Origin: Candidatus Nomurabacteria bacterium | GTDB taxonomy: Bacteria > Patescibacteriota > Minisyncoccia > Phycocordibacterales > UBA1006 | Reading direction: 5' to 3' | Length of the DNA stretch: 41,716 nucleotides | NCBI GenBank assembly: GCA_031424015.1 | Contig: JANPGR010000032.1 | Span: 1 to 41,716 of the forward strand | Shown: positions 28,785 to 33,359 of the stretch, piece by piece | How the letters are laid out: every line of letters starts with the position of its first letter | Numbering within the stretch: the stretch's first letter is position 1 | Program-made: the position numbers and the translations under genes | Notes under the pieces: model-generated | The model's input: the letters and a program-made list of their open reading frames with translations, nothing else | Databases searched by the model: none | What the model was told of the DNA's origin: nothing

Positions 28785-28934
28785 ATAATGTGTACGTGTG
28801 TATGTATCCTGCACAAATCCGAGTAATAATGGTGGATTTGTTTCTCGCTGGCCACAAGGTGCTATTCTGATGAATTTTGCGCTTTGTGTACCCTTCGACG
28901 GGTGATTGATTTTGTTAGAGTGGGATTATTCCCG

Positions 28935-29043
28935 GTAACATACATCCGAAATTGTATTTCTGCGAAACCGTCGACATGCTTTTTTGAAAATAGAGACTGT
29001 TACTGGCTTTTATTCTCGAAAAAAATTTCAGATGTATGTTACC
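28935..29043. repeat. Long hairpin element (about 20-bp stem, about 69-nt loop)
   Basis: ggtaacatacatc (28935-28947) pairs perfectly with gatgtatgttacc (29031-29043). After one mismatch the stem continues with gaaatt/aatttc. Confidence 0.5.
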
Positions 29044-29148
29044 CTACAAACAAGGCAATACTCGCGAGTCCGTGGTTATCGGAAACAGTGATGTACAAGG
29101 ATGATACTAACACAAATAGCGGTTATGAGCAAGGTTCTTGTGATAGGA

Positions 29149-29173
29149 CCCCCTCCCGACCTCTCTCTAAAAG
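29149..29173 (+). repeat. 25-bp perfect direct repeat, copy 1 (ccccctcccgacctctctctaaaag)
   Basis: Identical to 29460-29484. Confidence 0.9.
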
Positions 29174-29259
29174 TGGGCAGGAAAACCATAAAACCACTCC
29201 TCCTACACCAGACCCAAGCTAAGAGAAGTAAATTCTTGCTACAAACTACAGGGCTAGGC

Positions 29260-29298
29260 ATTCCCCTCTGTGGAGGGGTGGCCAACGGCCGGGGTGGT
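29260..29298 (-). repeat. About 40-bp palindromic repeat family 'ACCACCCCGGC-N5-8-GCCACCCCTCCACAGAGGGGAAT', copy A (inverted orientation)
   Basis: The reverse complement of 29260-29298 is accaccccggccgttggccacccctccacagaggggaat. It contains the hairpin cccctc-caca-gagggg. Confidence 0.85.
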
Positions 29299-29315
29299 TT
29301 TTACAAGGTATTTAC

Positions 29316-29343
29316 TTGACACATAGGTAATAATATGTACTAT
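29316..29343 (+). promoter_or_regulatory. Candidate sigma70-type promoter inside the repeat region
   Basis: Perfect TTGACA (29316-29321), a 16-nt spacer, then TACTAT (29338-29343). No convincing ORF follows for about 1 kb. Confidence 0.3.
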
Positions 29344-29459
29344 AGTTCTGGAATGGGCATTGTGTCCTCTTTTAACATCTTTGCAGAATTTGATTGTGGA
29401 AAACGGGTCTGACTCGTCGATTTCCCATTGGGTTTTGCAATATATAGGTGCGAAAAGAA

Positions 29460-29484
29460 CCCCCTCCCGACCTCTCTCTAAAAG
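29460..29484 (+). repeat. 25-bp perfect direct repeat, copy 2, followed by G-rich arm + GCCGCC hairpin module
   Basis: Identical to 29149-29173. Downstream, aggggaggagatGCCGCCtatGGCGGC (hairpin at 29497-29511) is paralleled at 33262-33289 by agggagggggatGCCGCCgtaGGCGGC. Confidence 0.9.
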
Positions 29485-30328: not shown

Positions 30329-30361
30329 ATCAAAAAAATTCTAAAGTAAACAAAAGTAAAA

Positions 30362-32443
30362 ATGAAAATTTTCATCAAATTTTTTCTAGTGCTAACCTTG
30401 GCGCTACTAAGCCTCCCGACACAGGTCGAGGCACAAGTAAAATGTGAAACCTGCAATGAAAACGGGAACCTTAAAAAGGGTGACCCGAAAGTGGTTGCCT
30501 GGATGCGTGCGGCACGTTGCTCAGGAATCAATGTTCCAAATATTAATGTCTGGAATCAGAGTGCCTACGAGCAACTTGTGATAATCACCGGGAGCACATG
30601 TATCCCTAAATGTATTAGCAATAAAAGGGCGAAACAAAAAACAAAAAAAATAGTAAAAAACACTAACAATGATGACGGTGAGATTGATTACACAGCGGAC
30701 ACAGTGGAGGGTCACAGAAGAGGGAATAAAAAACCTCCGCTTATTGGAGAAGAAACACCTCCGTTTGTTGGAGGAGAAACACTACCGACTGTAAACTGTG
30801 ACTCTCTTACTATTCTGAAACAAGAAAATGCCTTCTTGAAAGAGAGGGTTGATTTCTTGGTCCCCAGAAATGTGGGTTTAAAGAGACTGACTGATTCTTT
30901 GAGGCGGGAATTAGTGAATTGCCCAAAAGTAGATACAGCAGTTTCGAAAAAGCTAGTCCCCGCTCCGGCACCGGTTTTTACCAAAAACGACACAACTGTT
31001 CTGAAACTTTGGGATGCAACCTTGCTTGCAGGCAGGACCCACATGGTCTCGCCGAATGCGACTGAAGAGGGGAGCGGTAATTTTTTCAATGCCTCTCTGC
31101 ATAGAAGGCTGGGAGACAGTTCTAAGAGTTGGTTGGGAGTAGAGCTACAAAGGTTCTACGATCAGTATGGTTTCGATAGAAGGAGTACAGCTCCACCAAG
31201 GTCACTTTTCCCAAATCATGCACTTATGATTTCCTACAGAACAGAAGTTTTGGGTTTTAAAACCCAGGTTTCTGCTGGAGCGATGAATGCTTCGCGGTTT
31301 TCGGAAATATATCCAGTATTCAAATCCAGTATCCAAAAAGATATTAACGAGGATTATTCTTTTTATGGTAATTCCCTTTTGTGGGGGATGCCGAAAAAAG
31401 ACCACTCTTTCGATCTTGAAACCGGCCTGATGGTCGGTGGGGACATAAAAAAGGACAAAGCAAATTTGAAAGGCCTAATAGGTGTCAGTACCAGCAATGT
31501 AGTTGCAGAGAAGCTGGGAGTAGGGGAAGAAAAGGAAAAAACCTCTAACTCATTTATCGTTGGAGTGAACCTTGGTTTAGGTGAACAACAAGAACAAGGG
31601 GAATACCCTTTTCTTGCTTTTTTCAAGGGATCATTCGACCTTGGTGGGGTAAAAAAGGGTTTTAATCCTCACATTCTTGAAGCTGGCTTTAAAGTTGGCT
31701 TTGGGTTTGGGGAAGAGGTCATCAAGCCTAAGATGGACTTCGGTCCGCCACAAATTGGAGGAACAGACTCGATCAAAACTTTTCCAACAGATTCGACTTT
31801 TCAAACTTCAGTTGGTGGCTCACAAAGCTACCAAGTTGAAATCGAGCCTGGTCCGGTTTCGACACCACTACCGCTTACTAAGGCAAAAGAAGTCATACCT
31901 GCTCCGGTGGATGTGGTTGATTCTCGGTCAGAAGAGTTAAAAGAAAAGGAAAGAGAGGAGGAGATTGTCAAAGCCATTGAAGCCCATAAAAGGGATTCGA
32001 TTGCTCAGGCGGGAAAGATTTTGAAGGATTATGAGGCGAGCCCTCCAGGCGGTAGTGTTAGTGGAGGTATGGGATCAAAAAAAGATTTCACCTCAGTGTC
32101 TCCGGAGGATGTGGGAATACGGGAGTGCATAAGAGGGCTTGATATATATGTATTGGATTCTACTTCTATAGAAGGAAACAAACATACAATGATTTTAGGG
32201 TCCCCTGTAGGGATACCGAAATTCATGAATTTAAACCCTGCTGATAAGATATCAAAACCAAGGAGAGAGGGTGTCATTGAGATAGTGGAGAGAAATGCTT
32301 TTTTTAAAGAGGGAGAATCTAAAAATATACGATACAGAGTGAGGGTCTATAACGGAAACAAGGCCATATGTAAGACCATTGTAGAAGGAGTTTTCCTCTC
32401 TAAGGAAGAGTATAAAAAAACAGGAAGAGAAAATAGGAAGTAA
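30362..32443 (+). CDS. Secreted hypothetical protein (693 aa) with a Gly/aromatic-rich, beta-strand-like central region
   Basis: A long uninterrupted ORF. Signal peptide MKIFIKFFLVLTLALLSLPTQVEA|QV. Cys-rich N-terminus. Short tandem motif GEETPPFVGGETLPT. Central segments have alternating hydrophobic/Gly patterns (SFIVGVNLGLGEQ, FLAFFKGSFDLGG, EAGFKVGFGFGEE). A charged coiled stretch follows (EELKEKEREEEIVKAIEAHKR). Confidence 0.8.
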   Translation: MKIFIKFFLVLTLALLSLPTQVEAQVKCETCNENGNLKKGDPKVVAWMRAARCSGINVPNINVWNQSAYEQLVIITGSTCIPKCISNKRAKQKTKKIVKNTNNDDGEIDYTADTVEGHRRGNKKPPLIGEETPPFVGGETLPTVNCDSLTILKQENAFLKERVDFLVPRNVGLKRLTDSLRRELVNCPKVDTAVSKKLVPAPAPVFTKNDTTVLKLWDATLLAGRTHMVSPNATEEGSGNFFNASLHRRLGDSSKSWLGVELQRFYDQYGFDRRSTAPPRSLFPNHALMISYRTEVLGFKTQVSAGAMNASRFSEIYPVFKSSIQKDINEDYSFYGNSLLWGMPKKDHSFDLETGLMVGGDIKKDKANLKGLIGVSTSNVVAEKLGVGEEKEKTSNSFIVGVNLGLGEQQEQGEYPFLAFFKGSFDLGGVKKGFNPHILEAGFKVGFGFGEEVIKPKMDFGPPQIGGTDSIKTFPTDSTFQTSVGGSQSYQVEIEPGPVSTPLPLTKAKEVIPAPVDVVDSRSEELKEKEREEEIVKAIEAHKRDSIAQAGKILKDYEASPPGGSVSGGMGSKKDFTSVSPEDVGIRECIRGLDIYVLDSTSIEGNKHTMILGSPVGIPKFMNLNPADKISKPRREGVIEIVERNAFFKEGESKNIRYRVRVYNGNKAICKTIVEGVFLSKEEYKKTGRENRK

Positions 32444-32444
32444 C

Positions 32445-32598
32445 CGTCATTGCGGACCCAAAAATCAAGAAGCACCAAAAGTGCGACTATGATTTTTGGA
32501 ATTGATCCGCAACCCAGGGGTTTGAAACTTTTTGTTCTAGTAGATATGCCGAGAACAATAGGCTAGAATCCCTGGATTCCCGCCTGCGCGGGAATGAC
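32445..32598. repeat. MITE-like palindromic element of the same family, copy 2 (154 bp), starting 1 nt after the stop codon of the 693-aa ORF
   Basis: cgtcatt-gcgga...tccgcaa-cccagggg ... tccctgg-attcccgcctgcgcgggaat-gac. The first hairpin is expanded by ccaaaaatca (32457-32466) / tgatttttgg (32489-32498). The terminal hairpin is attcccgc-ctgc-gcgggaat. Confidence 0.65.
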
Positions 32599-32610
32599 AA
32601 AAAATAAAAA

Positions 32611-33143
32611 CCTTTGCTGGCAGTCCGCCGGCTCTAGGTAATATACATGAGAATAATTTCCTGGAAGAATCTCGCCTCACGTAGAGGTGAAGGTTTGAAA
32701 GGGAGCTGATGGGAAGAGGCTGTTGCGCAACGTTGTGACATTCGTCGCAAAGGTTGCCGCAGCCTCGGACCTAGGCTAAATAGCTCCTCGTTTTGAGGGG
32801 TGACAAGAATGGGACCGTATTGGCCCGCCAGATTGGAATATCTGGGAAACAGTACAAACAGGATAACCGTAACCTGGTTTCAGAAATGAAATGAAATCCG
32901 TTATGCGCAGCAGTCCGCAAATAGGCTCTACCAGAATTTTCTGGTCCGCAGAAACTGCGAAGTGTTTCAAAAAAAGAATTGTGAAGAGTGATTGAGGTTT
33001 TTCAAGAACCTTGTAATGCGAAATGTATTGCTAAATCTTGAAATTGTACACAAGGGTATTTGAAATCCTTGGTGCAACAAGTCCCCTGTTGGGGCAAATG
33101 ATAAGGCCGAAATACAATATTTTTTTGTAAATTCGGCTTTTTT
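32611..33143 (+). ncRNA. Candidate large structured RNA of unknown class (ORF-free and hairpin-dense, ending at a plus-strand intrinsic terminator)
   Basis: There is no ORF of 60 aa or more on the plus strand. At least 10 local hairpins were found by hand: 32673-32689, 32716-32766 (GAGGCUG...CAGCCUC with inner UUGCG/CGCAA), 32784-32800, 32828-32845, 32856-32880, 32930-32945, 32947-32959, 32995-33011, 33051-33071 and 33083-33094. Junctions are purine-rich (UGAAAGGGAGCUGAUGGGAAGAGG). The direct repeat CAGUCCGC...GGCUCUA occurs at 32621-32637 and 32911-32930. The terminator is at 33105-33143. Confidence 0.3.
33105..33143 (+). terminator. Intrinsic terminator (plus strand)
   Basis: GCCGAA(a)T-ACAA...TTGT-ATTCGGC is followed by TTTTTT (33138-33143). 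It lies about 215 nt upstream of proS. Confidence 0.65.
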
Positions 33144-33157
33144 CATACCTGGATTTT

Positions 33158-33198
33158 ACCACCCCGCCCTAGTCGGGCACCCCTCCACAGAGGGGAAT
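33158..33198 (+). repeat. Same palindromic repeat family, copy C
   Basis: accaccccgccctagtcgggcacccctccacagaggggaat. It is inverted relative to copy A, 3.9 kb away. Confidence 0.85.
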
Positions 33199-33359
33199 GT
33201 CTAACTCGGTAATGTCTGATAAAAATCCACCCCACCCCACCCCTAACCTCTTTGCCTCGTAGAGGGAGGGGGATGCCGCCGTAGGCGGCAAACGCTACTA
33301 TAAATACCATTGCACTACAGTTTTGTGTTTCTGGGGTTTATCTGGTAGTATACGGATAT

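Follow-up and report, generated by a model that had tools for sequence, protein, structure and literature searches.

The divergent genes rpsB (28116-28814, - strand) and proS (33360-34613, + strand) of contig JANPGR010000032.1 are separated by a spacer of 4,545 bp, delimited from open reading frames (ORFs) and Pfam matches, which is a lineage-specific expansion occupied by a single credible gene and by arrays of short, dispersed hairpin repeats. The window analysed is this entire contig of 41,716 bp; it comes from a freshwater-sediment metagenome, 99% of its words are found in two runs (X1 and X2), and its host is an uncultured Paceibacteria-type member of the Patescibacteria, or Candidate Phyla Radiation (CPR), with a small genome. 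One of the repeat families in the spacer is that of the Neisseria transformation sequence (NTS) and its related motifs (SRM). The explanation that we favour, and that we consider probable, is that an orphan gene is flanked in this lineage by mosaic arrays of hairpin repeats, similar to those formed by enterobacterial bacterial interspersed mosaic elements (BIMEs) and neisserial intergenic mosaic elements (NIMEs), and that the region is not a bounded island. Repeat clusters of this type are already known from other bacteria, and the present one is not new in kind.

A preliminary description of this DNA had put the non-coding part of the spacer at about 2.4 kb and had pictured the genes as tightly packed elsewhere; both points hold, with 2,463 bp measured as non-coding (28815-30361, 1,547 bp, and 32444-33359, 916 bp) and no other gap in the window above 567 bp. 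The sole credible gene is an ORF of 693 codons; smaller ORFs of the spacer cross repeats and have no significant match in Pfam or NCBIfam. At gathering thresholds, Rfam returned only tRNA-Ile for the whole window; at E values up to 10 it gave chance-level matches only, for the region and for 32600-33160 alone, and ARAGORN found neither tRNA nor tmRNA in the region. The repeat arms had also been described as rich in G+C, and they are: 29461-29520 contains exactly 37 G+C in 60 positions, as counted then, and the elements reach 64-66% G+C, against 36-41% between them and 37% in other intergenic DNA. A wave-like G+C pattern of this kind is found in NIME arrays (PMC1797815). Perfect hairpins with a stem of at least 7 bp occur at 3.2 per kb in the region and at 1.0 per kb elsewhere, terminator-like hairpins number 17 as compared to 5.9 +/- 2.8 in shuffles, and many 120-nt segments of the region fold with z below -4. 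The repeats are irregularly spaced and belong to mixed families, and Rfam matches to CRISPR were sub-threshold (E >5); thus, the region is not a CRISPR array.

The expansion was assessed by comparison with relatives, all of them rather distant. The best match of RpsB in species-representative genomes has 65% identity and all others have at most 48%, the best match of ProS among 5.8 billion proteins has about 68%, and exact-protein look-ups for RpsB and TnpA returned no record; since there is no close public relative, synteny could be judged only at roughly the family level. Eight related loci, from Paceibacteria, retain the order tsf-rpsB<>proS-mreB(-mreC-tgt). Their rpsB-proS spacer is 54 bp long in two cases (L318, L319) and 151-815 bp in the others (L017, L023, L024, L051, L054, L070), and repeat arrays were present in none of the relatives' spacers examined. 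The two longest (L023, L024) contain an ORF of about 170 aa, from which it follows that gene insertion does occur at this site. The 4.5-kb spacer is thus a lineage-specific expansion and not an ancestral feature. In the closest relative, L002, the locus is rearranged and mreB and rpsB are divergent and 186 bp apart (9815-10000); there, proS does not adjoin rpsB, tsf does not follow rpsB, and between mreB and rpsB there is a long hairpin with perfect pairing, AGCCCCGCCCCATTACC-AAA-GGTAATGGGGCGGGGCT.

The family of CGTCATT...AATGAC elements, B, could be linked to a described system. The NTS, CGTCATTCCCGCGMAVGCGGGAATCYRG (Chenal et al. 2025, PMC11893778), includes the dRS3 repeat of NIME arrays, ATTCCC-N8-GGGAAT (PMC1797815); it is bound and cut, only as single-stranded DNA, by SsnA, a small GIY-YIG nuclease, and related motifs, the SRM, flank ssn genes across many phyla (PMC11893778). 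The Patescibacteria go unmentioned in the main text of that paper. With at most one mismatch to CGTCATTCCCGCGMAVGCGGGAATCYRG allowed, the element at 32572-32599 is an NTS, having a single mismatch. It is also the only fit in the window to the published SRM pattern, HGTCWYN(0-2)YYVSBRHN(0-5)WNVSBRGN(0-2)RNCYNB (PMC11893778), as compared to 0.12 fits in shuffles, and it contains the only exact dRS3 (32576-32595). Five other CGTC(A/T)T hairpins, that is, most copies, fail the strict SRM pattern because their stems differ, their loops are longer or the loop contains an insert of 49 nt, but they keep the flanks CGTC(A/T)T and YCCAGG, and their stems change in a compensatory manner (TTCCGGA/TCCGGAA, TTGCGGA/TCCGCAA, TTCCCAGG/CCTGGGA). 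Together, the copies make up three pairs whose members face inward, with CGTCAT outermost (Table 1). In pair 2 each half is preceded by a 5-bp hairpin, and the pair contains the second copy of a perfect 21-bp direct repeat (29821-29841 and 30162-30182); family D is a 5' hairpin extension on two SRM variants. On sequence grounds, we assign the CGTCATT...AATGAC family to the NTS/SRM hairpins, which are the single-stranded DNA targets of Ssn GIY-YIG enzymes, and its inward-facing pairs match in geometry an NTS-ssn-NTS cassette from which the gene is missing.

Such a cassette, NTS(+)-ssn-NTS(-), separates pheS from pheT in another Patescibacteria metagenome-assembled genome (L005), where the NTS is almost identical to the copy in the window. 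The ssn gene of L005 codes for a GIY-YIG protein of 94 aa, and a second small GIY-YIG ORF is found 1 kb upstream, at 8392-8643 (L005 region 8392-10030). In viral contigs that bear NTS copies, all three Ssn homologues (3/3) sit between inward-facing NTS copies. Gene-less NTS pairs with spacers of about 50 bp are common in viral contigs and in X2, the commonest spacers in the viral contigs being of 50-53 bp; when X1 and X2 were compared with L005 9674-9715, many gene-less NTS pairs with differing spacers of 18-39 nt were seen. In three IMG/VR contigs (L212, L292, L248), NTS copies form regular arrays in which the orientation alternates and the spacers measure about 50 and about 30 bp, which is the classic NIME-type periodicity. 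Words of the canonical NTS reach a depth of about 6,000-11,000 in the X1 and X2 sediment metagenomes, and a depth in the thousands in four of four metagenomes, including two (X3 and X4) that are nearly devoid of this genome. The variant at 30080-30114, for its part, has 20 times (X1) and 19 times (X2) the word depth of the genome and is almost absent from X3 and X4, which points to about 20 copies of it in this genome.

The 40-bp family, A, had been described as a palindrome in 3-4 copies. All of the repeat families listed in the preliminary description are present, but the 40-bp unit consists of two adjacent hairpins. Pattern scans of IMG/VR recovered the full architecture, AACCACCCCG-[hairpin of free sequence]-CCACCCCTCC-loop-GGAGGGGAAT, in many unrelated contigs; 86 copies have in common AATT-CCCCTCC-loop-GGAGGGGTGG-[hairpin]-CGGGGTGGTT, with conserved flanks. 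The first hairpin is represented by 65 different sequences, yet its pairing is kept, with a mean of 3.9 pairs vs 1.7 in shuffles, none of which (0/200) reaches the observed value. Copies are intergenic, and among the 49 examined elsewhere the orientation relative to neighbouring genes is 12 vs 11; we rejected a transcription-strand bias for this element, and since it occurs in both orientations we regard it as an element acting at the DNA level. The A core has a word depth 7.7 times (X1) and 12.7 times (X2) that of the genome, indicating about 8-13 copies per genome equivalent, three full ones of which are in this spacer. A literature search with sequence strings of the family returned noise only, and the 29440-29600 composite had no match by blastn against plasmids.

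Outside the spacer, 2.5 kb away, the window contains an IS200 element with a Y1 transposase gene, tnpA (Table 1). Its left end reads ATTCCCC-hairpin and its right end hairpin-GTGGGTGGTTTATT, motifs that it has in common with the 40-bp family. In a comparison of 57 related elements, left ends had the form (A)ATTCCCC-hairpin-GGGG-T and right ends hairpin-CGGGGTGGTTGATT. The opposite strand of the A element reads AATT-CCCCTCC-loop-GGAGGGG-T and then GG-[hairpin]-CGGGGTGGTT, so that a single strand contains motifs of both IS200 ends, AATT-CCCC...GGGG-T for the left one and hairpin-CGGGGTGGTT for the right one; in the alignments, ATTCCCC and GGGT(GG)TT are invariant or nearly so across IS200 ends and A copies. 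The A element thus looks as if a hairpin of the left-end type had been joined to a hairpin and tail of the right-end type. Because it has end motifs in common with both ends of the nearby IS200, it resembles a miniature IS200 derivative. Gene-less minimal IS200/IS605 elements, the palindrome-associated transposable elements (PATEs), are known from the literature, and the chances are about even that A is of this kind and is mobilised in trans by the transposase encoded at 26255-26683. The IS200 copy (26161-26734) is complete, and pieces 90-99% alike were found in >15 freshwater metagenomes from different studies, so that its mobility must be recent.

Two further types of module, C and E, complete the arrays. 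The perfect direct repeat reported as 25 bp long measures 26 bp (29148-29173 and 29459-29484) and belongs to family C, whose hairpins follow CCCCTCCC...GGGAGGGG. Family E consists of the GCCGCC-N3-GGCGGC hairpins at 29497, 29557 and 33275; the 17-bp perfect inverted repeat noted earlier (29555-29571 and 33275-33291) does exist, but it merely represents two copies of this palindromic hairpin. C and E occur as C-E and A-E composites, also at other loci. Within the window, all repeat families are restricted to the rpsB-proS region.

Table 1. Features of the rpsB-proS spacer and of the IS200 element in the same window
Feature	Position	Strand	Remarks
Expanded divergent spacer, rpsB (-) / proS (+)	28815..33359	.	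4,545 bp; ORFs, Pfam
Long hairpin, 25-nt arms, 88% complementary, 60 nt apart	28934..29043	.	z -7.3 (120-nt segment)
C1, CCCCCTCCC...hairpin module	29145..29182	+	26-bp perfect repeat common to C2
A1, 40-bp family, AAACCACCCCG-[variable hairpin]-CCACCCCTCC-loop-GGAGGGGAAT	29260..29300	-	Equal-depth second locus carries the same element
C2 module	29456..29493	+	
E1, TGCCGCC-TAT-GGCGGCA hairpin	29496..29512	.	
A2, 40-bp family	29515..29555	+	Word depth 8-13 times that of the genome
E2, TGCCGCC-TAC-GGCGGCG hairpin	29556..29572	.	A+E composite recurs elsewhere; loose ends at 29571
31-nt inverted arms, 84% complementary	29600..29903	.	Enclose SRM pair 1
SRM-like pair 1, TCGTCATTCCGGA-CTCGA-TCCGGAACCCAGG (+) facing TCGTCATTCAGGACCCAGG (-)	29666..29768	.	
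SRM variant with 5' hairpin extension (GACCAGAACGGCGTAGCCGTCTTCC...)	29744..29841	-	One copy of the 21-bp repeat inside
Partial A-like hairpin, CCACCCCTCCAG-loop-CTGGAGGGGAAC	30003..30038	+	
SRM-like pair 2, CGTCTTCCCAGG-CTTGA-CCTGGGATCC (+) facing CGTCATCC... (-)	30066..30182	.	117 bp
G+C-rich hairpin	30303..30331	.	About 30 nt upstream of ORF start
Orphan ORF, 693 aa	30362..32443	+	N-terminus resembles a signal peptide
SRM pair 3, CGTCATTGCGGA-[49-nt loop insert]-TCCGCAACCCAGG (+) facing canonical NTS (-)	32445..32604	.	About 50 bp apart
Canonical NTS copy, TGTCATTCCCGCGCAGGCGGGAATCCAG	32572-32599	-	27/28 bases as in Neisseria NTS consensus; includes dRS3
Strongly folding G+C-rich stretch, candidate RNA	32640..32960	+	MFE (minimum free energy) -117.5 kcal/mol; z -5.5 (+) vs -2.0 (-)
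Terminator-like hairpin, GGCCGAA...TTCGGC then TTTTTT	33105..33146	+	z -5.7 (folding window)
A3, 40-bp family	33158..33198	+	First hairpin with compensatory changes (GCCC/GGGC)
C3-E3, CCCCTAACCTCT...AGAGGGAGGGGG then TGCCGCC-GTA-GGCGGCA	33228..33290	+	
IS200 element (outside the spacer)	~26161 to 26733/4	+	Ends from loose ends in other metagenomes
tnpA, IS200/IS605-family Y1 (HUH) transposase, 142 aa	26255..26683	+	PF01797 E 2e-33; NF033573 (NCBIfam, IS200 equivalog) 124.5 bits, cut-off 55

The repeats are not confined to this locus. Several contigs at the genome's own depth, in both X1 and X2, carry A core or 30080-30114 elements in different flanks, and word depth indicates that these families have some 10-20 more copies in this genome. 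In this respect, the suggestion of a nursery of REP/MITE-like elements was well founded: the elements are multi-copy by word depth, they have different flanks, and two families can be tied to hairpin-processing enzyme systems. Alternative junctions of modules (29823->30071, 29802->30114 and 29802->32501) were found in other contigs, again at the genome's own depth; for this reason, and because they have mismatches to the present locus, we read them as paralogous loci that join the modules in other ways. That the region is a recombination hot spot is plausible.

Some neighbouring features deserve mention. At 27348-27486 the window holds a 137-bp element that resembles a miniature inverted-repeat transposable element (MITE), with perfect 17-bp terminal inverted repeats (27351-27367 and 27468-27484); its word depth, 30-40 times that of the genome in X1 and X2 and near zero in X3 and X4, indicates roughly 30-40 copies in this genome, and many contigs of equal depth carry copies. 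Between it and an unannotated ORF of 162 aa (26816-27304, - strand) lies a perfect G+C-rich hairpin, AAAGCCGCCTCCCTCGGGAGGCGGCTTT (27305-27332), that looks like a bidirectional terminator. EF-Ts (27629-28087) is only 152 aa long; tsf is similarly short in several relatives (matches of about 145-150 aa), and in others it corresponds to about 190-260 aa.

The 693-aa ORF has no match in Pfam or NCBIfam. No homologue turned up when 5.8 billion proteins were searched through a word index, or when 1.84 billion cluster representatives were searched in full with HMMER. That the gene is real and resident is argued by its length, by GC1 being higher than GC2 and by a G+C at third codon positions (GC3) like that of the host. 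For G+C, GC3 and codon use, the ORF falls inside the range of the host or at its edge; the codon-use score is the lowest in the window but close to that range, and no compositional sign of recent transfer was found. Judged by eye, the N-terminus, MKIFIKFFLVLTLALLSLPTQVEAQ, is signal-peptide-like and the protein is probably secreted. AlphaFold2 run on the protein in the absence of an alignment gave an uninformative model (predicted local distance difference test score, pLDDT, of 33). Downstream of the ORF, the stretch at 32640-32960 has no match to an Rfam family; together with the hairpin at 33105-33146, it may be an unknown RNA. Among RNA runs there was a single marginal one, with 7% of words. 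A direct repeat (CAGTCCGC..GGCTCTA, at ~32622 and ~32910) flanks 32640-32960.

Could this be mainly a regulatory and RNA-coding region, with hairpins serving as terminators, attenuators or mRNA stabilisers for rpsB, the ORF and proS, and with 32640-33146 as a structured non-coding RNA gene? The excess of terminator-like hairpins speaks for it, as do the strong folding of 32640-32960 on the + strand only, with a terminator-like hairpin after it, and the fact that each 40-bp copy in the window is oriented like its downstream gene. However, the copies examined elsewhere have no such orientation bias, the families are multi-copy and common to unrelated genomes, Rfam gives no match, and a spacer of 54 bp suffices in relatives. 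We regard this as an improbable explanation of the region as a whole. It is compatible with the one that we favour, because REP-type elements often act as terminators.

The preliminary description had raised the possibility of a horizontally acquired or mobile island, with two of the 40-bp copies, A1 (29260-29300) and A3 (33158-33198), as terminal inverted repeats and with the ORF and the candidate RNA as cargo. These two copies are indeed inverted, with complementarity that extends weakly to 55 nt at 76%, the region is missing from relatives and the ORF is without any relatives. Yet the supposed ends belong to a dispersed family that recurs, in either orientation, elsewhere in this genome and in unrelated contigs; the third full copy, A2, is in direct orientation relative to A3; C and E modules lie outside the bracket (29145-29182 and 33228-33290); the bracket encloses neither a transposase nor an integrase and has no target duplication; and the composition of the ORF is that of the host, as detailed above. 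Lacking a recombinase gene, bounded only by dispersed repeats and host-like in composition, the region is neither a genomic island nor a composite transposon in the usual sense, and we find a discrete island very unlikely. Little more can be said for an origin from decaying genes or from the remains of a prophage, with repeats as later colonisers. The large share of non-coding DNA, in a genome that is compact elsewhere, and the ~170-aa ORF at the same site in L023 and L024 would fit such an origin, but the non-coding parts contain no ORF fragment with a significant Pfam match, the DNA between the elements is A+T-rich like ordinary intergenic DNA and there is no phage or integrase signature, which leaves this possibility as slim as that of the island. 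Finally, a chimera in which repeats joined unrelated pieces of the metagenome is the least credible of all: the evidence comes from contigs and not from raw reads, Logan unitigs break at the repeats and other contigs carry alternative junctions, but the unitigs tile 27600-34700 evenly and break nowhere else, the depth of all unique segments is uniform within each of the two independent runs (X1, 11.6-13.7; X2, 64.9-68.7), with no sign of misassembly, each repeated stretch is <60 bp and therefore spanned by ordinary reads, the flanking gene order is that of relatives, and the alternative junctions mismatch this locus and are hence paralogous.

The expansion by dispersed hairpin repeats, as we see it, most likely came about as follows. 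The elements would be hairpin substrates, in single-stranded DNA, of HUH (TnpA) and GIY-YIG (Ssn) enzymes. The 40-bp elements would be miniature IS200 derivatives that the Y1 transposase mobilises in trans in single-stranded form, and the SRM pairs non-autonomous relatives of ssn cassettes. New copies would accumulate and nest in the spacer because insertions are tolerated there, and recombination between copies would shuffle the modules into mosaics. More speculatively, the hairpins may act as insulators or transcription terminators that separate the orphan gene from the two housekeeping operons, and the arrays may modulate recombination of incoming single-stranded DNA around the gene that they flank, by analogy with Neisseria. 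A bolder version, which we hold to be unlikely, is that the SRM pairs are non-autonomous copies of a transposon-like NTS-ssn-NTS cassette, that a small GIY-YIG nuclease for single-stranded DNA and not a classical transposase spreads these hairpins across phyla, including the streamlined CPR, and that the arrays would fence the gene of an orphan secreted protein and control the recombination of incoming single-stranded DNA.

Several points weigh against the explanation that we favour. No transposition event, empty site or polymorphism was found. Modules C and E could not be linked to any enzyme. An ssn gene is absent from the 41.7-kb window (best tblastn E 0.5), and the ssn fragments of X1 and X2, detected on the L005 cassette, are of low depth, none having this genome's depth ratio. 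The link between IS200 and the A element consists of end motifs of 7-10 nt plus proximity; the IS ends that were aligned were picked by the analyst, and some relatives have TTTCCCC or TTACCCC; the A element has no left foot of the right-end hairpin of the IS; A copies are absent from 171 kb around the 57 related tnpA genes, and tnpA is absent from the viral contigs that bear A copies. In addition, the copy numbers rest on assembler word depth, to which other strains or species may contribute, and the unitigs overlap only inside repeats, so that independent proof of the segment order does not extend across them.

BIME and NIME mosaic arrays have been studied mainly in Proteobacteria, and CPR genomes are usually called streamlined. 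The present locus extends the host range of the same array architecture, including a near-perfect Neisseria NTS, to a genome of the Patescibacteria/CPR. An insertion-sequence-like behaviour of ssn cassettes has been suggested in the literature, and the gene-less inward-facing NTS pairs, together with the L005 cassette, support this idea at the level of sequence. Many viral contigs carry the 40-bp family, for which we found no existing name; a link to IS200 would supply a candidate mobilising enzyme. For genome annotation, it is of practical relevance that such arrays yield spurious ORFs (e.g. 28884-29222 and 29360-29731) and fragment assemblies.

Among known systems, NIMEs (Bentley et al. 2007, PMC1797815) resemble the arrays described here in being mosaics of intergenic, G+C-rich hairpin repeats with A+T-richer spacers that flank genes for surface or secreted proteins, and the spacer contains one exact dRS3 and one pair with the typical distance of about 50 bp. 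In contrast to NIMEs, where multiple ATTCCC-N8-GGGAAT repeats alternate with RS elements of about 50-150 bp, the spacer has a single exact dRS3, at least three unrelated families are involved, spacing is irregular and the host belongs to another phylum. The likeness to the NTS/SRM-Ssn system (PMC11893778) is found in the 27/28 match to the NTS, in the oriented CGTCAT...YCCAGG flanks that the other copies keep around a covarying hairpin, in the clustering of copies around the gene of a probable secreted protein, in the inward-facing pairs with NTS-ssn-NTS geometry and in the existence of the cassette in a related member of the phylum, L005; the window differs in having no ssn gene, in that most copies fail the strict SRM pattern, and in its host, which is of the Patescibacteria. 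With repetitive extragenic palindromic (REP) elements, BIMEs, REPINs and PATEs, the repeats have in common that they are imperfect hairpins of 20-45 bp, intergenic, dispersed in both orientations and clustered into mosaics; the end motifs of the 40-bp family are also those of a nearby IS200 bearing a Y1 gene, and inverted pairs are REPIN-like. Unlike REP elements associated with a REP-associated tyrosine transposase (RAYT), the 40-bp family has no GTAG-type 5' tetranucleotide, the 86-copy consensus containing no GT(A/G)G, and its copy number is about ten and not hundreds; the transposase in the window is an ordinary mobile IS200 TnpA with its own IS ends and no flanking A copies, and not a domesticated, single-copy RAYT flanked by REPs. 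PATEs described in the literature are longer than the A element, which differs from them in that it fuses a left-end-like and a right-end-like hairpin within only 40 bp.

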